Source of the DNA: a virus | DNA length: 64,000 nucleotides | IMG/VR virus record: IMGVR_UViG_3300044837_000078 | Location: 2,637-66,636 of that record | Direction: 5' to 3' (one strand) | Shown: piece by piece, positions 2,866 to 43,324 of the stretch | How the letters are laid out: the number at the start of each line of letters is the position of its first letter | How positions within the stretch are numbered: the stretch's first letter is position 1 | Notes under the pieces: model-generated | What the model was told of the DNA's origin: nothing | Database searches by the model: none | Seen by the model: the letters and a program-made list of their open reading frames with translations, nothing else | Translations under genes and position numbers: made by a program

Positions 2866-2907
2866 TTGACTTATCCTTTAAGTCGGATCGAATAGAAAAT
2901 GCCCAAC

Positions 2908-2929
2908 AAAAAGCCGCCCGAAGGCGGCT
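2908..2929 (-). terminator. Intrinsic terminator-like hairpin between the decoration and capsid genes
   Basis: Minus strand AGCCGCC-TTCG-GGCGGCT followed by a T run. Confidence 0.6.
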
Positions 2930-2959
2930 GTCAGGGCGGAGGGTGCAGCGCTAGTCGGG

Positions 2960-3331
2960 TTACGACAGGCCGCGGGGCTGGATCAGCATCGCGAAGATGT
3001 CACCGCTTGAGGCCGAAGCCAGAGCGATGCCCATGAAATTATTGTCGGCCGACGAGGCGTTGACCGCAGCACCGTTGGCATCGGCAACCAGCGCCTGGCC
3101 TGCGGTGATCGAACCGCCGGCCACGACCTTGCTAATGCCGCTGGGACGGATGCGAGCGGCGCGGGTAGCCGCCGCAGGGGCATCCTGCAGAACGCCTGCG
3201 GAAAGCTGGCCGCGGGTCGAAACGGCTGCGTTGCCCGACGAGTCGACGGTGATGAAGCGGTACTGCTTGGTGGAAAGATCGGCTGCCGCAGGCAGCGAGA
3301 AGTCGAGATTATTACCGTGATCGAACGACAT
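2960..3331 (-). CDS. Capsid decoration/cement protein (DUF2190-like)
   Basis: 123 aa, Ala/Gly-rich, AAADLS..QYRF, AGGSITAG..L.ADANG, GIAL..A..GD; upstream of the capsid gene. Confidence 0.8.
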   Translation of the reverse strand: MSFDHGNNLDFSLPAAADLSTKQYRFITVDSSGNAAVSTRGQLSAGVLQDAPAAATRAARIRPSGISKVVAGGSITAGQALVADANGAAVNASSADNNFMGIALASASSGDIFAMLIQPRGLS

Positions 3332-3442
3332 GGGTCGTTCCTTTCATTTTATCGAAGATAAAAGGGAAATGCGGGGGCGCGCCCGCCGGCCGTCAGGAGG
3401 ACCAGCCAGCGAGCGCTAACCGCGCGATTGCCGCCCAGGAGC

Positions 3443-4552
3443 TTAAGCGGCGCGCTTCTCGGTGAGCGACTTGGCGTAGGCAGCCTTGCCCTCGGCCGTC
3501 TCGAGCACCTTGGTGTAGGCGACTGCCTTGGACACCGTCTTGTCCGCGGCCATGTAGGTCGCGACCATCTTCTCGATATCGCCTTCGCCAGTGCCTTCGC
3601 CGCTGCCGTCCTTGCCGAGCGTGGTCAGTTGGGTTTTCATCGCCGCATTGCCGCCCTTGAGCATGGCCTCGACGACCTCGCGGTCCTCTTTCGCCAGTTT
3701 GGAGACAGCGCGCAGGGCTTTCGCCTTGGCGATCGACGTGCCAGGCAGCGACGGGATTTCGGTCTCGGCGCGCTTGGTGAAGGCGTTGATCTCGTTGGTC
3801 TCGGTCAGGGATTTCATGACCTTGAACTGATCCTCGCCGATCACCGACTTGCGCAGCACAACGCCGTCATGCTCGAGAGTTTCATCGCTCTTGGCAATGT
3901 CGGCGCGTTTGGCGATCTCGGCGTCGAACTCTTCCTTGGCCTTGGCGACCGCCTTGGCGACGCGCTTCTCGGTATAGGAGCGCCATGCCTTCTTGGCATT
4001 GTCGTCCATATCGTCCGCGTCAGGCTCGGGTTCGCCGTCGGTGGAGCTGTCGTCATACGGCTTTTTCTTGGGTGCCGCCTTCTGCAGAGCGGTAAGCGCC
4101 GCCGTGGTGTCAGTGAGTTTCTTGGTGATCTCGCCGGTCGACTTTGCGACCGCGTCTGCGATCATCTTCTGGATTTCTGCTTCGGTCATGTCTTCAATCC
4201 TTTCATGGCCGTGGTGGCTTTTGGCTACCCAACCGTCGGGCAGCATGGAGGTTGCGCCGAGCGACTTGGCGCGGCTGATGATATGGGCTTTTGCCTTGGC
4301 CGGGTCTTTGGCCCTGCCGATGGCGTGGATGGCGTTCTTGAGGTCCGCCGTGGTGGAAATGGGAAAGCTGCCGTCTGGCAATGCCGCCCCGGTGGATGCG
4401 AGATGATCGCGCTGGTCGGACGTAAAGTCGCGTTTCCAGTATTCATCGGCGCTGTCGTCGCGCTTCATGATGGTCATGCGCGCGCCGGCCTGGGCCGGCC
4501 GGTCAACGGCGCTGATCTCGTTCATCTTGAACGCCCGCATGATGCGTTTCAT
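3443..4552 (-). CDS. Scaffold-like head protein with an N-terminal protease-type EISAVDRPA motif
   Basis: Start 4552 overlaps the upstream stop (ATGA). N-terminal EISAVDRPAQ, a GAALPDGSFPI..DLKNAI module and a charged helical C-terminus. Confidence 0.7.
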   Translation of the reverse strand: MKRIMRAFKMNEISAVDRPAQAGARMTIMKRDDSADEYWKRDFTSDQRDHLASTGAALPDGSFPISTTADLKNAIHAIGRAKDPAKAKAHIISRAKSLGATSMLPDGWVAKSHHGHERIEDMTEAEIQKMIADAVAKSTGEITKKLTDTTAALTALQKAAPKKKPYDDSSTDGEPEPDADDMDDNAKKAWRSYTEKRVAKAVAKAKEEFDAEIAKRADIAKSDETLEHDGVVLRKSVIGEDQFKVMKSLTETNEINAFTKRAETEIPSLPGTSIAKAKALRAVSKLAKEDREVVEAMLKGGNAAMKTQLTTLGKDGSGEGTGEGDIEKMVATYMAADKTVSKAVAYTKVLETAEGKAAYAKSLTEKRAA

Positions 4553-6596: not shown

Positions 6597-7761
6597 ACCT
6601 GTAAATCAGACTGCATCGGCAGTTGATCGTCAGCTCAGGCTCAGCGCTCGGATCACCGGGATAGGCTAGGCCGTAAGAGAAAAGATCATTCAGGCCGACT
6701 GTCTCGCCATCCATCTCGGCATGTTCCGGCCTGACCTTGTGGTCGCCGACTGTTATCCATTTCTTCGTGACTTGCCCAACCTCGAGCTTGCCGGAATTTA
6801 CGGCCTGATTCCAAAGTTGATTGTTGCCTGCGTTCAAAGCCCGGATCGATTCCGTCCGCGCGATGGTCTTGGATCGATATTTGAGGTACCGCGCCGAATA
6901 GCGCGAGACCATGGTGTCGATCTGCTCGGTCGACAAAGCACTCTCGCCGCGAGCAGCACGAGCCACAGTCGGATCAAAGCGTCGGTCGCGTAGTTGCCGC
7001 GAAAGCGCATCGCGTGACCCGCTGGTCAGAGCACCTCTATAGTTCTGCACAGCTTTCGTCTGTGATTCGGTCAGGCCGATGAACTGCCGCACGTCGCGCG
7101 CCACGTCGATCGGGTTGCGCCCGGCCGCGGCGCCTGCCTGTATCGCCGTGCGCACGCTGGCCAGGGCATCCGAACTCATGGCCCGGATCAGGCCCATCTC
7201 ATAAGTTCGCAGGAAACTCACCGTCTGCGGATTGGTGATGCCGAACGATATGTTCATCTCGCCGAGCGCATTGACCGCGCGCGCCGTCTGCCGTGCCGCG
7301 TCGACCGCCGCGCCGGTGATAGCTTCTGCGACCGGCGCAAACCCCTGTTGCAGCAGCTGCGCGTCAACGGTGCGGATGGCTTGGTCGACGCGGCCCTGTT
7401 CCAGCAGCGACTTGATCTGCTCGACGTCGATCTGGTCGCCGAGAGCATTCACCGCGTCCAGAAACGCCTGCCGGACCTTGGCGCTGATCTGGTCGGCTTG
7501 GCGGAGCAGGCGGTCGAGTTCGGCCTGGTCGGCGGCGGACATCTTGGCGATAAAGTGCCGGGGCTTTTTGATTGTCTCGGGTAGATGCAGTGCATCGGGC
7601 TCCGTAGCCCATAACCGATTCGCGGGTAGCTTCCCGGCTAAAACCCCGCCACGACTAGGTCTAGCATGACGATGCCGCGAGAGCCACCTCGGATCAGTGG
7701 CGGACTTGGCGACGACGATCTGCATCAATGTAAGAACTGCACCACAAGGGCAATCAGGCAC
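6583..7761 (-). CDS. Minor head protein (Mu gpF/SPP1 gp7 family)
   Basis: IARTE, KKW...D.KVR..H..MDG, YPGDP...INCRC. Confidence 0.9.
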   Translation of the reverse strand: MPDCPCGAVLTLMQIVVAKSATDPRWLSRHRHARPSRGGVLAGKLPANRLWATEPDALHLPETIKKPRHFIAKMSAADQAELDRLLRQADQISAKVRQAFLDAVNALGDQIDVEQIKSLLEQGRVDQAIRTVDAQLLQQGFAPVAEAITGAAVDAARQTARAVNALGEMNISFGITNPQTVSFLRTYEMGLIRAMSSDALASVRTAIQAGAAAGRNPIDVARDVRQFIGLTESQTKAVQNYRGALTSGSRDALSRQLRDRRFDPTVARAARGESALSTEQIDTMVSRYSARYLKYRSKTIARTESIRALNAGNNQLWNQAVNSGKLEVGQVTKKWITVGDHKVRPEHAEMDGETVGLNDLFSYGLAYPGDPSAEPELTINCRCSLIYRFKLR

Positions 7762-25055: not shown

Positions 25056-26499
25056 ATGCAGCCTCGCCTCAAAACACAACCACAACTTCCCACACCGCTG
25101 GTGACCAGCCAGCTCGCTCTGTCCGCGCTCGTTGTCGTGCTCGGCGACGCGCTCGATGAACTGAAACAGCCCGGCGCCGCCTTCGACCGCAGCGACATCG
25201 TCGGGCGGATTGAGGACGTACTGGCCTCGGCAGAGGCGGTGCTGCAGTGACACTCACCGTCCTGAATTTACTCGACGAATGCACCGGCGAGATCAACCGC
25301 GCCGTGCTGCGCTCGATGGTCCACCGCCGCGCTATGGCCGACTACGGCGCGTTGACGCCGCGCTCGCTCCGGCAGGCCCAGCGCTACTACGCCAGCGTCA
25401 TTGCACAGCGGAAGGCCGGCTGGCGCCAGCGCCACGGGCTACCAGTCAAGATCACCATAACGACACCCTTTGGCCGTCCGGCCGAAGGCGTCCGCCGCTC
25501 GGCGTTTTGAGGTCCGTGATGAAAAGCGACGAGGATATCGCCAAGACGTTCCTGCTTCGCGGCATTCAGCAATGGGGGCAGTCACCCGCCGATCGCGAAC
25601 AAGCCACACGCGAATACGTCACCGCTGCCGGGTTTGTTTTCGGTTCGGATGATGGAAACGAATGGCTCAGGCACATCCTCCAGAACCTCAAGCGAGGGAA
25701 GCTTGAGACCGAGATCGAACAGTTGGTAGCAGCTCTTGCTAGCCGCGCATCCATCCTCAAAGCGGCGAGGGCGCAATGATGCTCGCTCAACATCCGTTCA
25801 TCCTCGGCATTCTGACCGGCGGCGGATTACTCGGCGGCGCGCTCGGCATCATCGGATGGTGCCTCGGTCACGACGCCGCAATGCGCAAGGTTGTGGGCTG
25901 GATGCGGCCGAAGGTCGACGAGGCGCACGGCGACGTGCCGGAGCTGCCGCCGATTCGTGAGCGGCGATTTATTCCGACAACGCCGGGACGCTGGACATGA
26001 ACGCGCTCAATCTCAAAGACCGGCTGAACGAAATTATCGCCTCGCTTTGCCGCGATGCCGACATGCCAAACGGCGGCCTATGTGAGGCGTCGCGCGTCCA
26101 GTCACGGAATCTTGTCGCCGCGCTTCGGGATGAGGTGACCGGCAAGCGCCCGAAATCAATCGATCCTTCATGGGGTGACCGATGAGTGCCCTCAGCCGCT
26201 TCATGTCCACCGCGCGCGGCATCCTCGACGAGAAGCCCGCACCGAAAGCGCAACCGCCGTTCTTCGTCCGCACGACGTGGCTATTCGCCGAACTGGAGGA
26301 GCTGGCGACGCCCGACGAGATCGAGACCTTCATGGCGATCAAGATAGCGTGCCTTCAATGCAACGTCGCAAAGATCGCGCCTCTAATCGAGGTAATCGCA
26401 ATCAATAGCGAAAGACTGACGGACGGCCGCCAGCGCCACGAGCGGAAACAGCTCTGCGCCTGGATCAAGGAACAGATCGCGCGGGATGGCTTGAAATGA
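25056..26499 (+). CDS. Six small early hypothetical genes (25056-25250, 25247-25510, 25519-25779, 25776-26000, 25997-26185, 26182-26499)
   Basis: Mostly translationally coupled ORFs downstream of the early promoter. Confidence 0.6.
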
Positions 26500-27428
26500 C
26501 CGTCGAAAGAATTCCGATCGACCCCGTTAAGATGCGCCCGCAATGGCTCGACCTGCGCACTAAGTTCATCACGGCCTCCGACGTGCCGGCCGTCTGCGGC
26601 GAGGGCCTGTTCGGCTCGGCCGCAAAAGTATGGGCCGAGAAAAAGGGCCTGCTATCGCCGCAGGAAATGAACGACGCGATGTTCCGCGGCATCATCGGCG
26701 AGCCCGCGGTGATGCGCGCCATCCAGTGGCACTTTCCCGATTGGGAAATCCGGCCGACCGGCGTGTTTCTGTGCGATCGCGAGACCCGTCTCGGCGCAAC
26801 CCCGGATGGCGCGGCCGTCATTCCCGGCCGCGATGGCATCGGAATCATCCAATGCAAGACCGTCTCACGGCCTTGGTATGAGCAGAAATGGCTCGACGAC
26901 GATGATAAGCCCGTGGTGCCGTTGGCCTATGAGCTACAGACCCTCACCGAGGCCATGTTGGCCGACGCGCCATGGGCGATGATCGCGGTCCTGATCGTCG
27001 ACACGTTCAAGTGGGAACTAAAAGTTTTCCCGGTCGAGCGCAACCCCGGCGCCGAGGCCAAGATCAGGCAGTGCGTTGCCGAGTTCTGCCGCGACTACCT
27101 CGACGCCAACGTGCAGCCGCCGATCGATCCGGTGCGCGACGAGGAGTTGGTGAAGCGTCTTTTCCCGCGCGACAACGGTGCCGAGATCGACCTTTCCGGT
27201 GACAACTCTTTGCCCGGCATCGTTGCCGATTTCGAGGCCGCCAAAGCCATCAAGAAACGGGCCGAGACCGAGGAGAAGATCGCGGCCACCGCCATCAAAG
27301 CAAAGCTCGGCGAGCACAGCACCGCGCGCCTCGCCGACGGCCGACGGATCAGCCATCGGCTGCAGCAACGGGCTGGTTACGTTGTCGCTGATACTGAATT
27401 CCGAGTTCTAAGACTGTTGAAAGGTTGA
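26496..27428 (+). CDS. YqaJ/lambda-exonuclease-family recombination nuclease
   Basis: WL..R...ITASD, G...EP, LGATPDG, IQCKT, Y.LQ. Confidence 0.9.
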   Translation: MTVERIPIDPVKMRPQWLDLRTKFITASDVPAVCGEGLFGSAAKVWAEKKGLLSPQEMNDAMFRGIIGEPAVMRAIQWHFPDWEIRPTGVFLCDRETRLGATPDGAAVIPGRDGIGIIQCKTVSRPWYEQKWLDDDDKPVVPLAYELQTLTEAMLADAPWAMIAVLIVDTFKWELKVFPVERNPGAEAKIRQCVAEFCRDYLDANVQPPIDPVRDEELVKRLFPRDNGAEIDLSGDNSLPGIVADFEAAKAIKKRAETEEKIAATAIKAKLGEHSTARLADGRRISHRLQQRAGYVVADTEFRVLRLLKG

Positions 27429-28192
27429 TCATGAGCGTTGCAGCCAGAACGGCAGTAGTCGGCGACAACCGCCCCTCGCTGATTACGACCGATCAACTCG
27501 CCAAGGACTTTCCCCAGGTCGAGGCGTTCATCGCCGAGCTTGAAAAGGCGACCGCCGAGTCGCCGCTTGTGATCGAGGATGACGCCGATATGGAGACGGT
27601 GAACGCTCTCGCGGTGAAGTTGGGCTCGGCGTCCAAGCGCTGCGACGTGCTGCGCGACGACACCGGCCGACCGCACCTAGAGGCCAAGCGAGTCATCGAC
27701 GGGTTTTTCAAGGGCTTCATGGCGCGCGCCGACAAGGCGCAAGCGATGCTCGCCGCGCGCGCTACCGCGTACCTGCGAAAGAAGGCAGCGGCCGAGCGGG
27801 CCAAGCGAGAGGCCGAGGAAGCCGTAGCGCGCGAAGCCGCCGCCAAGGCTCAGCGCGAAGCCGCGGCCGCCGTGAAGGCTGGCGACGCCGAGAAAGCCGC
27901 ACTGGCCCAGGCCAAGGCCGACGAACACGAAAGCTGCGCCGACCAAGCCGCGGACGCTGCCAATGCAAAGCCTTCCGAACTGGCGCGGACACAGACCGGC
28001 GCCGGCAGTTCAACGCTTGAGGAGCGGTGGTCGTTCGAGATCACCGACATCAACACCATCGACCTGAATGCGCTGCGCCCCTTCCTGCCGCAGACGGCCA
28101 TCGAGCAGTCACTGCGCGCATTCGTGAAATCCGGCCGGCGCCAGATCGCCGGCGCCCGCATCTTCCCCGACACAAAGGCGCGCTTCCGCTGA
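27425..28192 (+). CDS. Coiled-coil recombination-module protein
   Basis: Lies between the exonuclease and annealase; P.LE..R.IDGFF and a C-terminal G.R.I.G.RIF. Confidence 0.65.
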   Translation: MIMSVAARTAVVGDNRPSLITTDQLAKDFPQVEAFIAELEKATAESPLVIEDDADMETVNALAVKLGSASKRCDVLRDDTGRPHLEAKRVIDGFFKGFMARADKAQAMLAARATAYLRKKAAAERAKREAEEAVAREAAAKAQREAAAAVKAGDAEKAALAQAKADEHESCADQAADAANAKPSELARTQTGAGSSTLEERWSFEITDINTIDLNALRPFLPQTAIEQSLRAFVKSGRRQIAGARIFPDTKARFR

Positions 28193-28221
28193 TCGCGGAC
28201 GGCCGACACAAGGAGGCTACC

Positions 28222-29337
28222 ATGTCTGAAGAAGCCGCAACTGCCGAAGTCGTTCACCTGCCGGCGACACGCCACTTCGTATCGACGACGGATGTTTTCT
28301 CCGATCCCGCCTCATTCGAACATGCCCAGCGCGTGGCTAAAGTGTTTGCCTCGTCAAACCTGGTGCCACCGCACCTCAAGGGTCAGGTTGCCGATTGTCT
28401 GATCGCCTATCAGATCGCGCGCCGGCTCAATGAGGAACCGCTGACAGTTTTCCAAAACATCTATGTCGTCTCCGGCCGGCCGGGCTGGAAAACCGAATAT
28501 GTGATCGCGCGCGCCAACAAAGCCGGCGTGTTCAAAAGCCGGATCACATGGAAGCCGACAGGCGAGGGCGACAACCTCGCGGTGACGGCCAGCGCGGTGC
28601 TCGCCGATTCCGGCGAAGTCATCTCGGTTACCTGCGACATGAAGATGGCGCGCGCTGAGCACTGGACGAAGAACGCCAAATACACCTCGATGCCGGAGCA
28701 CATGCTGCGCTGGCGATCGGCCGCCATGCTGATCAGGCTCTACGCGCCGGAAGTCATGCTCGGCATGCCGGTGATCGAAGAACTGGAAACCATGGAGCCC
28801 GCGCCGATGCGCGACATCAGCCCGGCGATGCGCCGCTCGCTTGATGATTTTGCCAACGGCATCAACTCGGCCAGCGCTGCCGAGAGTGAAGTATCCGAAG
28901 ATCAAACCAATTCCACCGCGTCGTCGTCAGCAACCGGAGAACATTCATCTGCCGGCGCGGCGGAGGCAGGGGAGGCCGATCCAGCACAGGATCCTGACAA
29001 GGCCGGCCCTGCCAACAATCAACAGAGTTCGCCGCAACCGTCCTCGCCGCCCGCTGGGCCGGAAGCGTCGGGCCAGGCCGCTGCCAAGTCCAATCCCTCC
29101 AAGGAAGATAAGGCAGCGGCCAAGGCCGGAGATAAACCACCTTCAACGGAGGCGGAATACGTCGAGGCCACCACGATCTGGATTGCCAATCTGCTTGATG
29201 CGGACGCCGGCGAGAAGCGCTGGAAATCTGAAAAGACGCTTCGCAACAAAGCCAACGTCGGCGCCGATGCGCGCGAGTCCCTGCAAGAGAAGCTGGCGGC
29301 CAAGTGCTCCGAGATCAGGGACGCGGATCGGTCATGA
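28222..29337 (+). CDS. RecT/Redbeta-like ssDNA annealing protein
   Basis: AAGGAGG RBS; S.LVP....G...DC.IA, QNIYVV.GRP, W....KY..MP..ML.WR, YAPEV.LG. Confidence 0.8.
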   Translation: MSEEAATAEVVHLPATRHFVSTTDVFSDPASFEHAQRVAKVFASSNLVPPHLKGQVADCLIAYQIARRLNEEPLTVFQNIYVVSGRPGWKTEYVIARANKAGVFKSRITWKPTGEGDNLAVTASAVLADSGEVISVTCDMKMARAEHWTKNAKYTSMPEHMLRWRSAAMLIRLYAPEVMLGMPVIEELETMEPAPMRDISPAMRRSLDDFANGINSASAAESEVSEDQTNSTASSSATGEHSSAGAAEAGEADPAQDPDKAGPANNQQSSPQPSSPPAGPEASGQAAAKSNPSKEDKAAAKAGDKPPSTEAEYVEATTIWIANLLDADAGEKRWKSEKTLRNKANVGADARESLQEKLAAKCSEIRDADRS

Positions 29338-29771: not shown

Positions 29772-30139
29772 CAACCCACGCCGACCGCCTAAAGGCCTCC
29801 CACCGCGGCGCGCAACTGGCGGCACCGGCGAGCGCGTCGCGGCTCGCCTCGCTCGAATACCACAAGCTGCGATACGAGATGCTCGACGACGGAACGGTGC
29901 TGGTTGAAGGCGAGTTCGTTTTCAATCTCGCGGCCAGCCATTGGCGATCGAACAAGCACAGCGACTGCCATGGCTATACTGTCGTTGGCTTGGCTGGAGC
30001 GATCAAACAACGAACGCCTGAGAAACCCGCCGCGGGCAGGGACAACATGCAGGTCGAACTGGAGACCACTGAATCACATCAGCACGTCGAGTCCGCGGCG
30101 GGCCCCAATACGGTTCTGCCGATGAGCAAGTGGCCATGA
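29768..30139 (+). CDS. Hypothetical protein upstream of the TIGR-like locus
   Basis: ATGA-coupled on both sides. Confidence 0.5.
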   Translation: MTTHADRLKASHRGAQLAAPASASRLASLEYHKLRYEMLDDGTVLVEGEFVFNLAASHWRSNKHSDCHGYTVVGLAGAIKQRTPEKPAAGRDNMQVELETTESHQHVESAAGPNTVLPMSKWP

Positions 30140-30864
30140 GCAAGGAACCAACTGCCATCGGCGATGCTCTCGCGGCGCTTGGTCTCAATCGCTCTGAATA
30201 TGAGTTTGCCGCCGCTATATCGAAACTGTGGAATAGTGGGGTTACAGCCGAACGCGGGCGCGTAATTTACGAAACGCTTGCCGAAAGAATGCCGGGGAAG
30301 GGCCAGGAAGATTTTGCCAGCGATGGCCAGAAGTTGGATGCCAAGCCCCGGCAACCAATGCCGGACATCAGCCAGAGCAACCGTGCCAGCGATGGCCATC
30401 GATCAGATGCTGACAGTCCGGCGCCTATTGAAGATGATGGGGCCAATGAGCACAAGCCTCTAGGCCACGGGCCGGATGCCCCGTCATCTTCGCCCGCTCG
30501 CGGCGGGGAGGGCCAGAGTGCGCATGCTCAAGACCGCCGAATCGGTGTTGCTCTTCCCGCCGCGACACCCGCGCGAGAGCCATCTCCGACCTACCTGAAA
30601 GCCGCCGGCGACTCTCGCAGAGAAACCGCCCGCAGCATTCTCTACAGGTACAAGACAAGCACCGGCGCATGGTGGGGAGATGTCCACCCCTACGAAGTCA
30701 GCGGTATGACGCGCGACAGCATTCGCGGCCTGGCCATCATGTCAACTTTAGGTCCTCTCAACTCCAAGCAAATGAACATGACGTTCGATCAGTTGCTCAC
30801 ACCAGAGCAAGCGCAAATCGCTATGGAAAAGGCAGACAAGGAACTCGCGAATGTCGCACAGTGA
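30136..30864 (+). CDS. Tas-associated hypothetical protein whose central low-complexity region is encoded by the guide array
   Basis: Coupled to both neighbours; protein-like N- and C-termini flank array units 1-4. Confidence 0.6.
   Translation: MSKEPTAIGDALAALGLNRSEYEFAAAISKLWNSGVTAERGRVIYETLAERMPGKGQEDFASDGQKLDAKPRQPMPDISQSNRASDGHRSDADSPAPIEDDGANEHKPLGHGPDAPSSSPARGGEGQSAHAQDRRIGVALPAATPAREPSPTYLKAAGDSRRETARSILYRYKTSTGAWWGDVHPYEVSGMTRDSIRGLAIMSTLGPLNSKQMNMTFDQLLTPEQAQIAMEKADKELANVAQ
30290..30564 (+). ncRNA. TIGR-like stem-loop guide RNA array, units 1-4
   Basis: Four units about 70 nt apart: closing stem-GCCA-9 nt-(T/A)GC loop GCC(A/G)-9 nt-TGC-closing stem. Spacer pairs: GGAAGATTT/GAAGTTGGA, GAGCAACCG/TCGATCAGA, ATGAGCACA/CGGGCCGGA, GAGTGCGCA/AATCGGTGT. 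Confidence 0.85.
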
Positions 30865-31777
30865 AATCATCGATCTAATCCGCGCGAAGCATCGAGAGCG
30901 TTGCTTCGCTATGGATCAGCGCAAGCGGCTTGATCTCGCGCTCGGGGCGTTTTTGCGCCTCATGATGGGCTGGCGCAAAGACCTCCCCGAAGCTGAGCGG
31001 AAGGCGATCGCAGCGGAGGTGTCCGGCATGATGGACGATGGCGGCGGTCCCTGGGCGGAAGTCATCGCGGCCTCACGCATAGGCAGCGCGCCATTCGAAA
31101 AAATCGAGGGCGACGCCAAGAAGGAAATGGCGCGACTCGCCAAGCAACTGCCAGCCTGGGAAACGTTCGGCACTAAACACCGCGGTTTCGGCGAGGTCTC
31201 GCTTGCTGTGATTATTGCCGAAGCTGGCGACTTGTCGAACTATGCGACGCATTCGAAGCTGTGGCGTCGCATGGGCATGGCTCCTTATTCCAGGGAGGGG
31301 GTTACGAAGTCAGGCAAGCAGTGGCGAGTAGAAGGCGGACTCAGTGACAAGGATTGGACCGCTTTCGGTTACAGCCCAAAGCGGCGAAGTGCGATGTATG
31401 TGATCGAGGATTCGCTCTACAGGCAGCAAGGGTTCTACCGCGAAGTTTACCTGAAGCGGAAGGAGTATCTTCGAAGCCGCGCCGCGCGGAACGGACTTGC
31501 GGTCGCGCCTTCCGCCAAGATTCCAGCGAAGAGCCGTGATGAGTTCGTATCGCTCGGCCACATCGATCAAGACGCAAAACGATACATGGGAAAGCGCCTT
31601 CTGCGCGATTTGTGGAAGGCGTGGCGGCGGGCCATCACCGCGGTGGCTGAAAAGTCCGGATCGCGATTGCCCGCCGACGAAATCTCGCCGAAGGGCGAGG
31701 GGGAGGCCACCTGCGGTGGGCCTAAACAGGCCAGAGAAGCATTGCCTCTCCGTCAATTCATGGATGCCGCCGAGTGA
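30851..31777 (+). CDS. TasA-like Nop/IS110-derived RNA-binding protein with no nuclease domain
   Basis: GFGEVSLAVIIAEAGDLSNYATHSKLWRRMGMAP (IS110 Transposase_20/Nop-like), YSPKRRS, GHIDQDAKRYMGKRLLRDLWKAWR. Coiled-coil N-terminus; no DEDD RuvC or HNH motif; flanked by the arrays. Confidence 0.8.
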   Translation: MSHSEIIDLIRAKHRERCFAMDQRKRLDLALGAFLRLMMGWRKDLPEAERKAIAAEVSGMMDDGGGPWAEVIAASRIGSAPFEKIEGDAKKEMARLAKQLPAWETFGTKHRGFGEVSLAVIIAEAGDLSNYATHSKLWRRMGMAPYSREGVTKSGKQWRVEGGLSDKDWTAFGYSPKRRSAMYVIEDSLYRQQGFYREVYLKRKEYLRSRAARNGLAVAPSAKIPAKSRDEFVSLGHIDQDAKRYMGKRLLRDLWKAWRRAITAVAEKSGSRLPADEISPKGEGEATCGGPKQAREALPLRQFMDAAE

Positions 31778-31891
31778 GGCGGCGGTGTCGGCCAGTCTGC
31801 ATGCGCCGAAAGGCCAAGGCGTGGTTGCCGACACCTTCAATTCGCTGGCCAGTCCATCGTTGTCGAAAAACCATATCGGCACTGCCAGCGA
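31625..31891 (+). ncRNA. TIGR-like stem-loop guide RNA array, units 5-8
   Basis: Same architecture. Spacer pairs: TCACCGCGG/GATCGCGAT, CCTGCGGTG/GAGAAGCAT, GTCTGCATG/AGGCGTGGT, GTCCATCGT/TATCGGCAC. Followed by the hairpin CCTCTCCGG-GAAA-CCGGGGAGG (31892-913). Confidence 0.85.
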
Positions 31892-31940
31892 CCTCTCCGG
31901 GAAACCGGGGAGGACAAACAAGGAAGGAAGCGGTGACGCG

Positions 31941-32780
31941 ATGACCAGAGACGAGGCTTACAACATTGTTTGCAGGGCGTTCGATACGACCGACCAAAAT
32001 GGCCACTTCCGGACCAACCCGCGGATGCTGGTGGAAACTTTCGTTTCGCTCGGAATACTTAAACTCGATGAGCCGAAGAATTTGAAAGATCGCCTTCGAT
32101 GCGTCCTTGAGCCGCCGGGATATTTTCGATCGCCGGATGATTTTATGCGGGCGCTTGATGCGGTGCATCTCAAGATCGTGGAGAAATAACATGCCGCTGT
32201 CCCGCCGCTCGCTTCTCACCGCGCTTGCGTCTCTCACCGGCTTTGCGGTCGCGGGGAGGGCGAGCACTGCGCCAGTGGTTGAGCCCGTGATCGAGCGGGA
32301 GCTCGCTGGGCTACCTGTCTTTGCAGCGGCTCGTGGCGAGACCGTCAATATCACTGTCCGCGCCGGTGTCAGTGCCGCCGCCTTTAGAAGATCGCGGGCG
32401 CAGATCATGAAGGAATTGCAGCGCCGGAAAATAGATGACGACAATGCGGATGGAATGGAGCCAGCATGATCATGCCCGCCGCCCGCCGCTATTCCACCAG
32501 CCGCGCCGCTTCGCTGCAGCCGGAGATCGTGGCCTCGCTCTCCGATGACGAGTGGCGCAACATCACGGCGATCTGCGCAAAGCTCCATCGCTCCAGCGAC
32601 GACGCCGAAGTGGCGGCCGAGATCGCGGCCGATGCCGCCGCATACGGCAAGCTGCTCGCGGCCGGCGATGACCGCGGCTGTCTTGAGATCGAGCAGAAGT
32701 ACGGCCTGACAGGTCTGCCGCCGCAACAGGTCTCCGAGCAGCTGGCGGAAATGTCGAAGCCGGAAGGTGGTGGGGCGTGA
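31941..32780 (+). CDS. Three hypothetical genes (31941-32189, 32191-32469, 32466-32780)
   Basis: Coupled ORFs; the second begins with a Tat-like SRRSLL signal. Confidence 0.55.
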
Positions 32781-34507
32781 AGCAACCTATCCCGGATGCT
32801 GCGCTTGATGATCGACTCGGCTTTGTCGGCACCGCCGGCAGTGGCAAGAGCTACAACGCGATGGGCCGCGTCGAGCGGCTGCTGGAGCGCAAGGCCCGCG
32901 TCGCTATCGTTGACCCGCTTGGTGTGTTTTGGGGCTTGCGCCTCTACGCGGACGGCAAGACGAAGTCCGGTTTCGATATCCCGATCTTCGGCGGCCCGCA
33001 TGGCGATCTGCCGCTGACCGAACATTCCGGCGCCTTGATCGGCGAGACGGCGGCCGGCATGGCAGAAAGCTGCATCATCGATTTGAGCGAGATAGGCACC
33101 AAGGCCGGCGAGCGACGGTTCATGCTGCATTTCCTTACCGCGCTTTATCGCAAGGCCAGCGGTGAGCCGCTGCATCTCGTCATCGACGAGGCAGATATGT
33201 TTGCGCCGCAAAAACTCACAGACAAGGATGGCGAGGCGGCAAAGCTGCTCGGCATGATGGAGACGGTTGTTCGCCGTGGTCGCATCAAAGGATTTATCCC
33301 GTGGCTGCTTACTCAGCGTCCGGCCGTCATCGCGAAGGATGTCCTGAGCCAGGTCGACGGTCTTGTCGCGTTCAAACTGACCAGTTCGCAGGATCGCAAC
33401 GCGCTCGGCGCATGGGTCGAGGGCACGGCCGATAATAATGACTGGCCTGAGATGAAGGCCAAGCTGCCATCCATGGAGCGCGGGCAGGGCGTCGTCTGGA
33501 TTCCAGGTCGCGGCATTCTTGAGACTGTCAGCTTTCCGGAAAAGATCACGTTCGATTCATCTCGCACCCCGAAGCGTGGCGAGAAGAAATCGACCGCGGC
33601 TTTGACGCCGCTAGACCTCGGCAAGCTAAAGGACAGGCTTGCCGCAGTTGATGCCGAGACCAAGGCCAACGATCCGAAGGCGCTCAAGGCCGAGATCGCC
33701 GCTTTACGCAAAGAAGTGACCGCAAAAGCCCTGATTGCGCAAAACGCGGCTCCGGACCCGAGGGCCATTCGGGACGCGGAGGTTCGCGGACTGGAGGAAG
33801 GCTTCGTGGCCGCCATGCGCTTGCAAGCGAAGGCAATCGAGGCAATATCCATTCCGCTCAATTCCGCTGCCGGTGAACTGTCCGCGTGGAACAAGCGTCT
33901 TTCCGAAAGTGTGCCTGTTCGTCCATCGGGCTCGCCACCTTCGCAGGCATTCAACCTTTCCCCTGCGAAGCTCACAGCCCCGGCGCGGGAGGCCGTTCGC
34001 GCGGCACCGCGCAAGCCAATGCCGGCGGCGAGCGGCAACGGCGCCTGGAATTCTCCGCAACGGCGCGTGCTGGACTCACTCGCATTCTGGCGCACCATCG
34101 GCCACGAAATGCCGAGCCGCGAACAGGTCGCGTCCGTTGCCGGTTATTCGCCGGGATCGGGCAACTTCAACAATCTGCTCGGCGGGTTAAGGGCACACGG
34201 CGCGATCGATTACCCGGCGACAGGCTCGGTTGCGCTCGCGATCGATCATGAGAGCAACATGGACGCGGACGACGCCCGCCGGATGCTCGACAAAATCCTG
34301 ACCGGGCCGCAGCAGAAAATCCTCGAAGCGATGCGCTCGCTCGGAAGTCACGCCTCGCGCGAACAGATCGCGGAGGCCAGCGGCTACAGCGCTGGCAGCG
34401 GCAATTTCAATAACCTGCTTGGGCAGCTTCGAACGCTTTGCGTGATCGACTATCCGCGCACGGGCGAGGCTCAGATTACAGATTGGGCGGGGCAGGTGCT
34501 GGGATGA
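32777..34507 (+). CDS. HerA/FtsK-like (DUF87) ATPase with a duplicated C-terminal winged-helix-like module
   Basis: Walker A GTAGSGKS, IVDPLG, Walker B LVIDEAD, RGR..G, TQRPA; two SREQ.A...GYS.GSGNFNNLLG.LR...IDYP repeats. Confidence 0.85.
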   Translation: MKQPIPDAALDDRLGFVGTAGSGKSYNAMGRVERLLERKARVAIVDPLGVFWGLRLYADGKTKSGFDIPIFGGPHGDLPLTEHSGALIGETAAGMAESCIIDLSEIGTKAGERRFMLHFLTALYRKASGEPLHLVIDEADMFAPQKLTDKDGEAAKLLGMMETVVRRGRIKGFIPWLLTQRPAVIAKDVLSQVDGLVAFKLTSSQDRNALGAWVEGTADNNDWPEMKAKLPSMERGQGVVWIPGRGILETVSFPEKITFDSSRTPKRGEKKSTAALTPLDLGKLKDRLAAVDAETKANDPKALKAEIAALRKEVTAKALIAQNAAPDPRAIRDAEVRGLEEGFVAAMRLQAKAIEAISIPLNSAAGELSAWNKRLSESVPVRPSGSPPSQAFNLSPAKLTAPAREAVRAAPRKPMPAASGNGAWNSPQRRVLDSLAFWRTIGHEMPSREQVASVAGYSPGSGNFNNLLGGLRAHGAIDYPATGSVALAIDHESNMDADDARRMLDKILTGPQQKILEAMRSLGSHASREQIAEASGYSAGSGNFNNLLGQLRTLCVIDYPRTGEAQITDWAGQVLG

Positions 34508-34779
34508 AAAACAAACTCACCGACCTCAACGATCATCTATTCGCGCAGCTGGAGCGACTGTCAGACGAGCAGCTGACGCCGGAGCAGGTCGACAAAGAGG
34601 CCAAGCGCGGCAAGGCCATCGTTGCTGTCGCGGATCAGATCGTCAAGAACGCTAGCCTCCAGGTGCAGGCGGCAAGACTCGTCTCGGAAAAGGGCGCGAT
34701 CAGACCGCATCTGCCCTCGGTTCTCGGAGATTTGATTGAGGCGCCGCGCCCGAAGCTTATCGAGGCGAAAACCCAATGA
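34504..34779 (+). CDS. Conserved phage protein, commonly paired with an HNH gene
   Basis: MKNKLTDLNDHLFAQLERL. Confidence 0.75.
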   Translation: MKNKLTDLNDHLFAQLERLSDEQLTPEQVDKEAKRGKAIVAVADQIVKNASLQVQAARLVSEKGAIRPHLPSVLGDLIEAPRPKLIEAKTQ

Positions 34780-35612
34780 AGCGCATGCGCATCAACTGGC
34801 GGCCGCGCGAGCTGACCTGGATCAAGCGCCGCAGGAAGTGGGAGCGGCGCAAGCTGCACGCCGCGTTCGTGAAACACTTCCGTCGGCACCGCGACGTACC
34901 TTTTGGGACGTTCAAGTCGCTCTGCGCTCGTGCAGGCTGGTGGACCGGCCGGAAGAGCGGCCGAACTCCGGGCTACTTGCTGGCGTACACCAAGCCCGAA
35001 CTTACGTGGATCAAGCGCCGGCGCGCCATGCCACGGCGCGAACTCCATGCCGCATTCATCGCCGCATTTCCCAACCACACCATCTCGCTCAATGGGTTCA
35101 GACAGCTCTGCAAGGCCAAGGGGGTTATGACGGGTCGAGATGGTCGTCTGGTGAAGGGCAATATCCCCGCCAACAAGGGCAAGAAGATGCCCTTCAATGC
35201 GAACTCGGCGCGCACCAGGTTCAAGAAAGGCGACCTGCCCGCCAACACGAAATACGCCGGTCACGAGCGCATATCCAAAGACGGTTATGTCGAGATCAGC
35301 GTCCAGCAGATCAATCCGCACACGGGCTTTGAGCGTCGTCACGTCCTCAAGCACCGCTGGTTGTGGGAGCAGAAGCACGGTCCGGTCCCCGAAGGCATGT
35401 GTCTCAAGTGCAAGGGCGACCGGCTCAACACTGATCCTTCGAACTGGGAGTTGATCCAGCGCGCTCTATTGCCGCGATTGAACAGCCGTTGGGGAAAACG
35501 CCGCTACGACCAGGCGCCTTCTGAAGTGAGACCGACGATCATGGCTATCGCAAAGCTGGAGCAGCGGCTGCGCGAAAAGCCCCGCAACCAACAATCCGCA
35601 AAACAGGAGTAA
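34776..35612 (+). CDS. HNH endonuclease-like protein with N-terminal repeats
   Basis: KGNIPANKG, FKKG..P.N, G.ER...DGY, KHR.LWE...GPVP.G...D.SN.ELI; two ELTWIKRRR...LHAAF repeats. Confidence 0.8.
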   Translation: MKRMRINWRPRELTWIKRRRKWERRKLHAAFVKHFRRHRDVPFGTFKSLCARAGWWTGRKSGRTPGYLLAYTKPELTWIKRRRAMPRRELHAAFIAAFPNHTISLNGFRQLCKAKGVMTGRDGRLVKGNIPANKGKKMPFNANSARTRFKKGDLPANTKYAGHERISKDGYVEISVQQINPHTGFERRHVLKHRWLWEQKHGPVPEGMCLKCKGDRLNTDPSNWELIQRALLPRLNSRWGKRRYDQAPSEVRPTIMAIAKLEQRLREKPRNQQSAKQE

Positions 35613-36247: not shown

Positions 36248-36786
36248 ATGATGTCTCACCCTAAGTCACTCAAGCCCATGCTTCGCCGAGCAGCGCCGCC
36301 GATGAAGCCATGCAATCTCGTCAGCCGGATGCGGCGGATCCGATGGGAGCTGGCGATCACCCAGGATCGCACCCGCGACCCTGCGGTCGCCGACGAACTG
36401 GCAAGGTTGGTGCAGCAAACCGATGAGGCGATCGGGCGGATCGAGATCAAGCATCAGAGGCGGGCCGAGACATGAGCCATCTCGCCGCGATTATCATCAG
36501 CTTCTTTGTGTGGCCGTTCACCGCCATGTGGCGGGCTTACGTCATCATTGTTCTGTGGGGCTGGTTTGTCGTGCCGGCCACCTCTATCCAGGCGCCGTCT
36601 ATTTATTTGGTCGTCGGCATGATGATGACGCTGCACATGATGCTGCCCTACCCGCGATACCCGAAAGAAGAAGGCGACGCCCTCGCAAATTATTTGAGCA
36701 ATTTGATCGTCTATGGCGGATTGGCGCCTGCGGCGTTTCTGGGACTCGGCTGGGTTTGGAAATGGCTGCAATGGGGGGTGGTATGA
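36248..36786 (+). CDS. Two hypothetical genes (36248-36475; membrane protein 36472-36786)
   Basis: Coupled ORFs; the second has about three hydrophobic segments. Confidence 0.55.
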
Positions 36787-37172
36787 ACGAAGTTCGCGTA
36801 CTCCCTGAGTGGATCGGAAAATCGCCGAATAGCGCCGTTCCGCCGCGGGTGCGCTTGCGCGTGTTCGATCGATACAGCGGTCGTTGCTGCTGCGGCTGCA
36901 ACCGAAAAATCCGTGCTGGCGAGCGCTGGGATTGCGAAGATACCATCGCGATCATCAACGGCGGACAGCGGCGGGAAAACAACCTCAAGCCCTGGCTTGC
37001 CGCGCATCATCCGAAAAAGACCAAGCTGGATGTTGCCGAGAAATCCCGCGTCTATCGCAAGCGCGCGAAGCACTTAGGGATCACCGGACCAAAGCAAAAG
37101 ATCGCATCGCGCGGATTTGCCAAACGCCCGCCGCAACGAACTGCCAGCAGGCCATTGGAGAGACGGACTTGA
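36783..37172 (+). CDS. Small HNH-like protein, degenerate active site
   Basis: EWIGK.....VPPRVRLRVF....GRC..C, NGG...ENNL....HH..KT; CEDT in place of the usual DH. Confidence 0.65.
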   Translation: MNEVRVLPEWIGKSPNSAVPPRVRLRVFDRYSGRCCCGCNRKIRAGERWDCEDTIAIINGGQRRENNLKPWLAAHHPKKTKLDVAEKSRVYRKRAKHLGITGPKQKIASRGFAKRPPQRTASRPLERRT

Positions 37173-40831: not shown

Positions 40832-41611
40832 ATGAACTGTAGGAAAGCATTGGCCATCGATTTGTATTGCGGGCTTGGCGGCTGGACGGACGGCCTGCTT
40901 GCCGAGGGCTTTGACGTGATCGGTTTCGATATCACTCGGCACGCCTACGGCGAGCATCGCTATCCGGCGCAACTCGTCATCCAGGACGTTCGCACGTTGC
41001 ACGGCTCGCAATTCAAGAGTGCTGACCTGATCGTCGCATCGCCGCCATGCCAGGCATACAGCTATCGGGCGATGCCGTGGAAACGCGCGAAGGCTTTGCC
41101 GCCGCCGTGCAACGCGCTTTTCGAAACGTGCTTCCGAATCCAGCGTGAAGCCTGCGAGGCCGCCGGGCGGCATATCCCGCTGATCGTGGAGAACGTGCGC
41201 GGTGCCCAGAAATGGGTCGGGCGAGCGCGCTGGAACTACGGCTCGTTCTATCTATGGGGCGACGTGCCAGCGCTGATGCCGGTAACGTTCAAGGGCGTGA
41301 AGGTGCCCAGCTTTCGTTTCGATGGCAGTGGAAGATCATTCCAGAGCGAATCGGTGAAGGTCGCGGGACTGAATTTCAGCAATTACGGAAAGCCGGGCTA
41401 CAAAGCTCAGGCTTTCAACACGACCGCAGAGCAGCGCTTACGAGGCGAATACGGCGGCAACTTCGGCTGGGACGGCTCGCCGCTTCGTCGTGGCAATTCC
41501 AAATCCCCCGGCCGCAAGATGGCGTCCGCCATGATCGCAAAGATTCCGCTGCCGTTAAGCCGGTATATCGCCGCGACTTTCCGTCCTCAAATCGCACAGG
41601 CCGCAGAATGA
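40832..41611 (+). CDS. DNA cytosine-C5 methyltransferase-like protein
   Basis: IDLYCGLGG (motif I), ASPPCQ.YS (catalytic PC), ENV. Confidence 0.8.
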   Translation: MNCRKALAIDLYCGLGGWTDGLLAEGFDVIGFDITRHAYGEHRYPAQLVIQDVRTLHGSQFKSADLIVASPPCQAYSYRAMPWKRAKALPPPCNALFETCFRIQREACEAAGRHIPLIVENVRGAQKWVGRARWNYGSFYLWGDVPALMPVTFKGVKVPSFRFDGSGRSFQSESVKVAGLNFSNYGKPGYKAQAFNTTAEQRLRGEYGGNFGWDGSPLRRGNSKSPGRKMASAMIAKIPLPLSRYIAATFRPQIAQAAE

Positions 41612-42010: not shown

Positions 42011-42282
42011 TGACCAAGCTACAGAACACACTCGCCTATCCGCCCCGTGGCATGTGCGCCGATCGGGCTGCGGCCTATTGCGACCTGTCAAAAACAAAAT
42101 TCCTGGAGGGTGTGAATAGTGGGACTTGGCCGCCCGCAAAGGATGTAGATGGCGCACCAAGGTGGGATCGTCGGGAACTCGACGCTGCCTGGGATGCCTT
42201 GGATTATCGAAAGAAGGCCAGCAGTCGCGTCAAGACGGTGAGCGAACTGCTGGAGAAACTTGGTGGGGGCGGTGGACATTGA
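42010..42282 (+). CDS. xis: Excisionase-like HTH protein
   Basis: PRG....AAAYC.LS...F...V..G..P......RWDR.ELD, directly upstream of the integrase. Confidence 0.75.
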   Translation: MTKLQNTLAYPPRGMCADRAAAYCDLSKTKFLEGVNSGTWPPAKDVDGAPRWDRRELDAAWDALDYRKKASSRVKTVSELLEKLGGGGGH

Positions 42283-43324
42283 GTTTGTAAATAGCTTTGA
42301 GGACCGACATGGTCATTGGCGCTACTATTTTCGAAAGAACGGCAAGCGCTACGCGCTGCCTGGTGCGCCAGGCACGAAGGTTTTCACGGAAGCTTATGAC
42401 GCTCTGTGCGCCGAGCATGCGCCGCACGTCCTGCTGAAGAACAGGGGACCGAAGGCTCTGATTGACGGGTCGATCAATTGGATCATTGCCGAGTATAAAA
42501 AGTCGGGTAGCTGGAGCAATCTCGCTGACACGACGAAGGAAGTCTATAATCGTCGTTTCGATTGGCTGAAGCAACATTGCGGCACGGCGCAATTCAAGTC
42601 GATGACAGAGCGCGACGTGCGAACAATCAGAAATCTGTTCAAGGACAGGACAACCGTTGCAGACGCGATGGTCGAGAAGATCGGCATGCTTTGGGGCTTT
42701 GCGAAAGAGCATCTCGACATGGCCGAACTTGGCCCTAACCCGACGAAGGAAGTGGCCTCGCTGCACAAGGGCAGCACGCCGCACCCGAAATGGCCGGAGG
42801 CGCTTTGCAAAGCTTTTGAGCAACTCAACAACCCGCGCATGGTGCGTGCGTACTACCTTCTGCGCTACACCGGTCAACGCCGTTCCGATGTCGTGAAGAT
42901 GCAGCCGCGGATGTTCGACGGCTCGGCAATCGAGGTCGTCCAGCAAAAAACCGGAACCTACTGCTGGATCCCCTGCCATCAGAACCTGCGTGACCACCTG
43001 ACGGCGACCGGCATAGACGATCCATACCTGTTGACGCACTCGCTGGGCGGTCGCTACCAGGCGACCAGCCTGACGAACCTCATCATCATCGAATGCAAGA
43101 AACTGGGCTTTCCCGGGTTCTCACCGCACGGTCTGCGGCACCTGGCCGGAGCCGCGCTGGCGGAGGCCGGCTGCACGGTCGACGAGATCATGTCGATCCT
43201 GGGCCATAAGACCGAAGGCGAGGCGAGGGTCTATGTCCAGCAGGCCAACCGCAAGGTCATGGCGTCGTCCGGTGTCCTGAAATGGGAACAAAAGTCGAAA
43301 GGAAGTGGCAAACCGGTGTCCTAA
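42260..43324 (+). CDS. int: Tyrosine integrase
   Basis: DRHG..R.YFR arm domain; TGQRRSD, QQKT, HGLRH, LGH and Y. Confidence 0.93.
   Translation: MVGAVDIEFVNSFEDRHGHWRYYFRKNGKRYALPGAPGTKVFTEAYDALCAEHAPHVLLKNRGPKALIDGSINWIIAEYKKSGSWSNLADTTKEVYNRRFDWLKQHCGTAQFKSMTERDVRTIRNLFKDRTTVADAMVEKIGMLWGFAKEHLDMAELGPNPTKEVASLHKGSTPHPKWPEALCKAFEQLNNPRMVRAYYLLRYTGQRRSDVVKMQPRMFDGSAIEVVQQKTGTYCWIPCHQNLRDHLTATGIDDPYLLTHSLGGRYQATSLTNLIIIECKKLGFPGFSPHGLRHLAGAALAEAGCTVDEIMSILGHKTEGEARVYVQQANRKVMASSGVLKWEQKSKGSGKPVS

Follow-up and report, generated by a model that had tools for sequence, protein, structure and literature searches.

A very probable stem-loop TIGR-TasA system with guide units embedded in protein-coding genes of a complete phage genome

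We examined a window of 64,000 nucleotides (nt) from the viral record IMGVR_UViG_3300044837_000078 of IMG/VR, and all coordinates below are on the numbering of this window unless they refer to a related locus. The window contains a gene, tasA, for a nuclease-less protein, a companion gene immediately upstream whose stop codon overlaps the tasA start by 14 nt, and eight hairpin units, all on the plus strand, arranged in two blocks of four (30290-30565 and 31625-31891; Table 1). An earlier note on this DNA, made from its letters alone, had read the hairpins as paired guides of a TIGR-TasA-like system. Our analysis leaves us highly confident that the locus is a stem-loop-type TIGR-TasA system in the complete genome of a probably temperate phage, and it belongs to an already published class rather than being a new kind. 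The source record comprises 66,636 bases with direct terminal repeats, is rated a complete phage, and carries terminase, portal, major capsid, tape-measure and primase/helicase genes. It also encodes a tyrosine integrase (42260-43324; Pfam Phage_integrase, E 3.1e-9), so the phage is probably temperate.

By direct reading, the eight units lie within one base of the positions first claimed and follow the plan described for them. From 5' to 3', each consists of a closing stem of 7-15 base pairs (bp; G-U pairs allowed), CCA, a 9-nt spacer, [T/A/G/C]G, a loop of 8 or 10 nt, CCA or CCG, a second 9-nt spacer, TG and the partner strand of the closing stem. All 16 spacers are indeed 9 nt long and mutually different, and the box variants of units 3 to 7 (Table 1) are those that the earlier note had listed. 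When the eight units are aligned with MAFFT, the columns that never vary are GCCA, the G of the first box D, the CC of the second box C, and TGC, and no sequence is common to the closing stems. Loop ends can pair (CC...GG) in the 8-nt loops of units 3, 7 and 8 and in most of the 10-nt loops, often enclosing a GNRA-like tetraloop. The C of each box C is able to pair with the G of the distal box D, the same contact that is present in the PateTasR structure (Xu 2026, 10.64898/2026.09.09.750476; here and below, Tas publications are cited from the portions of their text that were available).

The number and quality of these units exceed what random sequence yields. A relaxed form of the pattern, combined with a stem of at least 7 bp, has 11 matches across the two strands of the window, nine from the eight units (one of which matches in two registers) and two from other places, as against a mean of 1.62 and a maximum of 7 in 100 Markov-2 random windows. 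A covariance model of the units, searched with no filters, gives them 31.2-60.9 bits and the next best site in the window 15.2 bits (E 0.32); the units match this model by construction, and the informative part is the gap to the rest of the window. Every unit folds with its closing stem, at z between -2.10 and -5.02 relative to shuffles. The sole Rfam match was GA-cis, at chance level (E 0.68).

Table 1. Genes, guide units and terminal hairpin of the locus, in window coordinates (z, folding energy relative to shuffles; bits, covariance-model score; aa, amino acids).
Feature	Position	Strand	Spacer A	Spacer B	z	Bits	Remarks
Companion gene	30136-30864	+					242 aa from ATG 30136; open reading frame listing starts at GTG 30130
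tigRNA unit 1	30290-30353	+	30306-30314	30330-30338	-2.95	60.9	8-bp stem, 3x3 internal loop, GG/CC, CCA, spacer A, TG, 10-nt loop, CCA, spacer B, TG
tigRNA unit 2	30359-30423	+	30375-30383	30399-30407	-2.85	53.4	10-nt loop identical to that of unit 1
tigRNA unit 3	30429-30492	+	30446-30454	30468-30476	-5.02	52.3	14-bp stem; first box D AG; 8-nt loop
tigRNA unit 4	30498-30565	+	30516-30524	30540-30548	-4.11	57.1	15-bp stem including G-U pairs; second box C CCG; alternative register of spacer B possible at 30537-30545
tasA	30851-31777	+					308 aa; nuclease-less Tas protein, coiled-coil and Nop-type C-terminal domain
tigRNA unit 5	31625-31676	+	31635-31643	31659-31667	-2.67	40.9	Within tasA 3' end; 7-bp stem; 10-nt loop; second box C CCG
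tigRNA unit 6	31700-31751	+	31710-31718	31734-31742	-2.10	33.2	Within tasA 3' end; 7-bp stem including one G-U pair; first box D GG
tigRNA unit 7	31784-31835	+	31795-31803	31817-31825	-3.14	41.9	Intergenic; 8-bp stem; first box D CG; loop CCGAAAGG
tigRNA unit 8	31842-31891	+	31852-31860	31874-31882	-3.02	31.2	Intergenic; 7-bp stem; 8-nt loop
Hairpin after unit 8	31892-31913	+			-3.79		9-bp stem, GAAA loop; -18.4 kcal/mol

The sequence of the tasA product points to the Tas family. Its only Pfam match is a weak one to Transposase_20 (PF02371) spanning 45 residues (E 4.7e-4; 20.9 bits, cut-off 21.3), and the Pfam scan found no other domain, HNH and RuvC included. PHROG places the protein in a 'transposase' family (E 1.4e-18), and the NCBIfam model NF052498 TIGR_Tas_endo ('TIGR-Tas system RNA-guided endonuclease') matches residues 72-259 at E 2.4e-28 (99.6 bits, curated cut-off 100). 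In fold alignments the protein is just 16-19% identical in sequence to the solved Tas proteins, and the best PDB chain by sequence alone was 9mty_A (E 0.04), which is TaTasR (Xu 2026).

The fold gives the clearer assignment. An AlphaFold2 model of TasA built from 43 aligned relatives (pLDDT 87.5, pTM 0.80) is confident to about residue 262, and residues ~263-308 form a disordered C-terminal tail encoded by the DNA of units 5 and 6. The model opens with long helices at residue 3, with no N-terminal domain; given these helices and the absence of any detected nuclease domain, the protein is therefore of the TasA type. In a Foldseek search of the PDB, the top ten rows are all TIGR-Tas structures (TasR 9mty; TasH 9w02, 9vzx, 9w03, 9w04 and 21kl), with E between 6.9e-6 and 7.6e-5, probability 1.00 and TMq 0.49-0.51. 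They are followed by IS110-family recombinases at E ~1e-3, and Nop5/Prp31 come in just at E ~0.5 (3nvk_A 0.51, 2ozb_B 0.58). Pfam and the model together bear out the earlier description of a gene with a Transposase_20/Nop-like region and neither RuvC nor HNH. Among the three groups that had been singled out for a fold comparison (Nop5/Prp31, IS110 and Tas), the Tas structures match best, and the fold is of the Tas-type Nop/coiled-coil kind.

Canonical box C/D motifs are RUGAUGA and CUGA. The boxes here are CCA and UG, and on this ground, together with the weakness of the Nop5 match (3nvk_A), we rejected the identity of a box C/D small ribonucleoprotein. Box C/D ribonucleoproteins (Nop5/Nop56/58; Prp31) do share a Nop domain and a two-guide RNA with C/D-type motifs on a coiled-coil dimer (Faure 2025, PMC12045711); they differ in that the fold matches are weak here, the boxes are only 2-3 nt long, and the published target of Tas is DNA, not RNA. 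A Pfam scan of four neighbouring genes found no fibrillarin or L7Ae: three had no match and the fourth only weak, sub-threshold ones of zinc-finger/ribbon type. We also rejected the identity of an IS110-family recombinase, as NF033542 reaches 19 bits against a cut-off of 140, over profile positions 119-275 alone, where a full-length transposase match would be expected. The IS110/IS621 bridge-RNA recombinases (PDB 8WT9, 9T56) have the RNA-binding Nop-like domain in common with TasA, as seen in Transposase_20 and Foldseek, but this locus lacks a DEDD/RuvC-like or Tnp catalytic domain, shows nothing that points to a mobile element, and carries eight tandem guides where those systems have a single bridge RNA.

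We gathered further evidence from relatives of the locus. Among the candidates scored, 386 TasA relatives were found at E <= 0.001. The relatives belong to phages and prophages of Hyphomicrobiales-type Alphaproteobacteria. The closest (P0002) is 70% identical; the closest named ones, at 48-52% identity, come from Aminobacter anthyllidis, Mesorhizobium mediterraneum, a Hyphomicrobium metagenome-assembled genome and Zhengella sp., and the sole relative among deposited phage records is in Rhizobium phage RHph_X2_25 (28%). We collected 114 related loci, of which 79 are viral (L002-L080) and 35 come from species-representative genomes (L081-L115). A covariance model built solely from the eight units of the window (R1) was then run on 99 of the 114 loci (L101-L115 left out). 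It produced 103 matches at E <= 0.01, in 42 of the 99 loci. Every one of the 103 has the same strand as tas, and most are found either shortly downstream of that gene or in the ~1 kb that precedes it.

The matched units show the covariation expected of a conserved structure. In the R1 alignment (91 distinct rows), 95.0% of cells pair, compared with 62.5% after shuffling, a figure somewhat inflated by the fitting of the alignment to the model structure, with a large margin remaining. All 15 of the 15 modelled stem pairs have changed on both sides, and the covariation score is 0.672, against 0.160 for shuffled alignments and 0.036-0.077 for slid partners. The claim that the closing stems vary in sequence yet keep pairing is thus borne out in related units. 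A simple pattern scan of L002-L080 found 72 units on the tas strand and 21 on the opposite one, and a scan of L081-L115 with a stricter score found 29 and 2. Across the window and the related loci, all 210 spacers in 105 distinct units are different from one another; the homologous loci show both the units and the spacer variation whose absence the earlier note had named as grounds for giving up its reading.

It is exceedingly improbable, in our view, that the hairpins are not guides at all and are instead palindromic elements of an ordinary kind (terminators, repetitive extragenic palindromic (REP)-like repeats or an IS110-type element together with its RNA) or a by-product of protein-coding repeats. 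Open reading frames do contain six of the eight units, and the protein does have a weak match to the IS110 family. Against such explanations, the stems keep pairing while their sequence varies and the box letters are invariant; every R1 match in the other loci lies on the tas strand; the peptides encoded by the units are predicted to be disordered and are hypervariable; the NCBIfam IS110 transposase model is matched in part and far under its cut-off; there are no T-runs 3' of the stems; and the covariance-model scans showed neither a similar density of units far from tas nor placement on either strand.

Two observations on the guide units stand beside these results. Small strong hairpins occur between and after units 5-8, at 31684-31699 (-12.0 kcal/mol), at 31766-31783 (-14.2 kcal/mol), where the tasA stop codon sits inside the hairpin, and directly after unit 8 (Table 1); all three may be linkers or processing marks. 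The last of them, which may mark the end of the array or a processing site, has no T-run 3' of its stem and is absent from the terminator predictions. In a Zhengella sp. contig (L084), the tasA open reading frame (2800-3747) has an N-terminal extension carrying two in-frame guide units (2756-2885), a layout that equals the published 'guides inside tas' arrangement and is found here in the same clade.

The upstream block of guides is embedded in the companion gene. The companion protein has an N-terminal 3-helix domain, a disordered linker and a conserved helical C-terminal domain, and units 1-4 lie in frame within the linker. In its AlphaFold2 model, residues 55-142 have pLDDT below 50 and the C-terminal domain 85-90; the disordered residues correspond to nt 30292-30555, that is, to the array. 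The same division is seen in eight homologues, in which the N-terminal (~57 aa) and C-terminal (~95 aa) parts are conserved and the middle is hypervariable. Ten loci, counting the window, have a tblastn match to either domain upstream of tas, and all ten keep a frame of 201-335 codons open across the array region. The distance from the end of this frame to the tas match is at most about 70 nt in seven loci; in L010, L018 and L084 the frame stops ~150-250 nt upstream of the match. Companion open reading frames in relatives were located at 1868-2773 in L010, 2214-3002 in L021, 2035-2748 in L084 and 2295-3005 in L019; those of L084 and L019 have a C-terminal domain of different sequence. The N-terminal 3-helix domain occurs in six further loci and the C-terminal domain in three.

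The companion protein matched no Pfam, PHROG or NCBIfam family, and the best match in a wide structural comparison with the PDB (Z 4.9) gave no recognised fold. The TIGR-Tas literature reports guides within tas itself, and also a ParB-like partner (Faure 2025; Xu 2026); the available text of these two papers contains no description of the companion gene, and no wider literature search for the gene was made. The upstream guides are in frame inside the companion gene, and therefore one transcript would have to be either companion mRNA or guide precursor. We tentatively propose that the companion could be a dedicated accessory factor, acting for example in guide maturation, loading or regulation, and that guide excision could tune the synthesis of companion and TasA; at present we hold this to be possible but rather doubtful. 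By eye, L010 too seems to have a RecT-like gene, upstream of its companion gene, a hint that synteny is shared.

In the window, tasA stands in a tightly packed string of plus-strand genes that follows a RecE-like exonuclease, a second exonuclease-like gene and a RecT-like annealing protein (26496-29337). Promoter and terminator predictions near the arrays yielded nothing above the shuffled background, so the most likely source of the guides is a polycistronic transcript from which they are cut. That the system would act early in infection, as the earlier note had proposed, is suggested only by its place in a RecE/RecT-type operon.

This setting also raises the question of whether a genuine TIGR-TasA might serve recombination or integration, as an RNA-guided aid that bends DNA or marks sites together with the RecE/RecT-type genes or the integrase. 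The co-directional arrangement of tasA with the RecE-like and RecT-like genes and the presence of an integrase in the genome are consistent with such a role, and Faure 2025 speculates that TasA could help phage integrases because Tas bends DNA by ~180 degrees. We nonetheless consider it improbable. Synteny alone is weak evidence, the spacers have no match in the phage's own genome, so that no attP-like self site is marked, and the experimental results on TasA in Xu 2026 and Guan 2026 (10.64898/2026.08.11.744272) are DNA binding and transcriptional repression.

Downstream of tasA, on the same strand and at a distance of 1-5 kb, lie genes for a HerA-like ATPase (32777-34507) and for HNH endonucleases (34776-35612 and 36423-37172), and TasA could in principle recruit such a nuclease or motor so that targets are destroyed. 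This is very unlikely to be the case: HNH and ATPase genes are commonplace in phage packaging and replication, the relatives inspected, which were not tested systematically, gave no sign of a conserved link with tas, and the repression published for TasA requires no partner (Xu 2026). Repression by TasA itself is the reading we prefer. Some features of nearby proteins are recorded here for their own sake. The 576-aa HerA-like protein has a P-loop ATPase core (NCBIfam E 3e-8, far below the cut-off) and, by eye, a C-terminal stretch of ~60 aa that occurs twice in near-identical form (…GYSxGSGNFNNLLGxLR…); the pair may be tandem winged-helix DNA-binding modules. A gene resembling a fragment of a C-5 cytosine DNA methylase lies at 40832-41611 (E 1.6e-8).

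Several results weigh against the identification as a TIGR-TasA system, in addition to the inflation of the pairing figure given above. While 27 of the 32 box positions in the eight units are canonical CCA or UG, five deviate. A CUU motif at stem bases has been reported as a processing mark (Xu 2026), and in a reading by eye only about three of the eight units (3, 4 and 7) have CTT at the 3' stem base or close to it. NF052498 and Transposase_20 both score 0.4 bits under their respective cut-offs. Finally, the searches for targets were negative: the phage's own genome (66,636 bases), searched in both strand arrangements with gaps of 0-2, has no site with two or fewer mismatches, and exact 18-mers of seven units returned 0-4 IMG/VR contigs each, nothing above chance.

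The remaining search results are of the same kind. Sites with three mismatches in the own genome number eight, about the chance number, and with this search at chance level we rejected self-targeting. When 105 units were compared with 773,294 bases of related loci, there was no exact site, and the 24 sites with one or two mismatches in one half are of the order expected by chance. The IMG/VR search used 18-mers that join spacer A to the reverse complement of spacer B; seven of the eight units were covered, which amounts to seven of the 16 possible patterns (unit 4 and the other arrangement left out). Units 2, 3, 6 and 7 returned no contig, unit 1 two, unit 5 one and unit 8 four (three of them from one low-GC lineage), for a total of five independent events in seven scans, which equals the estimated chance yield; tblastx showed no matched contig to be related to this phage. 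The paired-spacer 18-mers that the earlier note had put forward as target queries thus found nothing above chance in IMG/VR within these seven patterns and no site with two or fewer mismatches in the own genome. On the matter of strand arrangement, Faure 2025 places the cut 3' of the nucleotide opposite spacer base 5 and also gives 8-nt 3' overhangs; by our own derivation, these two statements fit different strand arrangements of the target. With no target found in the genome of the phage itself, the likely targets are genes of the host or competing mobile elements.

Two of the individual contigs with exact matches are described for reference. The sole GC-rich (62% GC) viral contig with the unit-1 18-mer (L117) has it at 7266-7283, between genes, where three GATTTTCCA repeats stand in tandem and an HNH-like gene follows; the contig has no relation to this phage, and the match is indistinguishable from chance. 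In another viral contig (L120, 63% GC), the unit-8 18-mer occurs at 742-759 within a tyrosine-integrase gene, again at chance level. This stretch is ~30% identical, at the protein level, to the integrase region of the phage studied here, which is without the site.

The TIGR-TasA assignment is supported by every sequence- and fold-level feature that could be tested: the Nop/coiled-coil fold of Tas and the lack of a nuclease domain, paired boxes, covarying closing stems, units co-oriented with and beside tas, a link that is kept in relatives, and hypervariable spacers. TIGR arrays and Tas proteins have been defined, along with a second, stem-loop array type with TasA that has the same plan (Faure 2025). 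A catalogue of 2,559 stem-loop arrays places them upstream, downstream and inside the tas coding sequence, in disordered regions, and a TasA was found to repress transcription in a guide-dependent manner with no cutting (Xu 2026). The structure of PlTasA with a stem-loop guide has been solved (Guan 2026), and the conserved boxes have been named CCA and UG (yeast preprint, 10.64898/2026.07.30.739390).

The closest known systems are the stem-loop ones of PlTasA (from a Peromyscus leucopus gut contig; Faure 2025, Guan 2026), BlTasA and MbTasA (Xu 2026). The locus resembles them in its nuclease-less Nop/coiled-coil protein and phage setting, in its tandem hairpins with two ~9-nt spacers each between box C and box D, in its variable palindromic closing stems, and in having sub-arrays on both sides of tas and inside its coding sequence. 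It differs from them in that its relatives are in phages and prophages of Hyphomicrobiales-type Alphaproteobacteria, in that its upstream sub-array lies inside a separate conserved companion gene rather than tas, and in that the CUU stem-base motif is, by eye, inconsistent. The best fold matches to this TasA, TIGR-TasR and TasH (TaTasR, PDB 9MTY; SpTasH, PDB 9W04), have conserved edge and loop repeats, 36-nt tigRNAs, N-terminal RuvC or HNH domains and a Y/H processing loop, whereas this locus has closing stems in place of the edge repeats and no nuclease domain. Nuclease-free CRISPR effectors (type IV, Cas12m/V-M and Cas12k) are functional analogues, with RNA-guided DNA binding without cleavage, carriage on mobile elements and a proposed role in competition between elements in common (Faure 2025; Xu 2026). 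Their proteins and guide architecture are unrelated, and they use a single spacer on one strand and need a protospacer-adjacent motif (PAM).

By analogy with other Tas proteins, we can suggest how the system may work. Transcription would cover a long plus-strand operon that begins with the RecE-like and RecT-like genes, continues with small genes, the companion gene and tasA, and extends into genes downstream. Eight hairpin units would then be excised, probably by a host RNase, four from the companion linker, two from the tasA 3' end and two from the sequence after the gene. A TasA dimer would hold each unit by CCA (box C) and UG (box D), the C of box C pairing with the G of the distal box D atop the closing stem. 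The two 9-nt spacers would pair with opposite strands of one 18-bp DNA site, with no PAM, and the complex would bind there and block transcription or replication; TasA has no nuclease domain, so it would block rather than cut. Guide processing, a 2:1 complex, recognition of 18 bp on both strands and repression are all carried over from published work on other Tas proteins, and PAM-free, RNA-guided DNA binding with repression in place of cutting, as the earlier note had proposed, would match the result for another TasA (Xu 2026).

This kind of system is already in print, and the locus is near to automatic annotation, the NCBIfam model falling just short of its cut-off. What the locus offers is a clean case: a complete, circularly closed genome of a probably temperate phage, in which all eight guides, the operon context and the integrase are known, and which is therefore suited to experiments. 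The natural targets of TasA and the maturation of its guides are questions raised in the Discussions of Faure 2025 and Xu 2026. The locus also exemplifies an arrangement that recurs among relatives, with guides written into the disordered linker of a conserved companion gene; if that gene is functional, its product would be a second protein component for stem-loop TasA systems.

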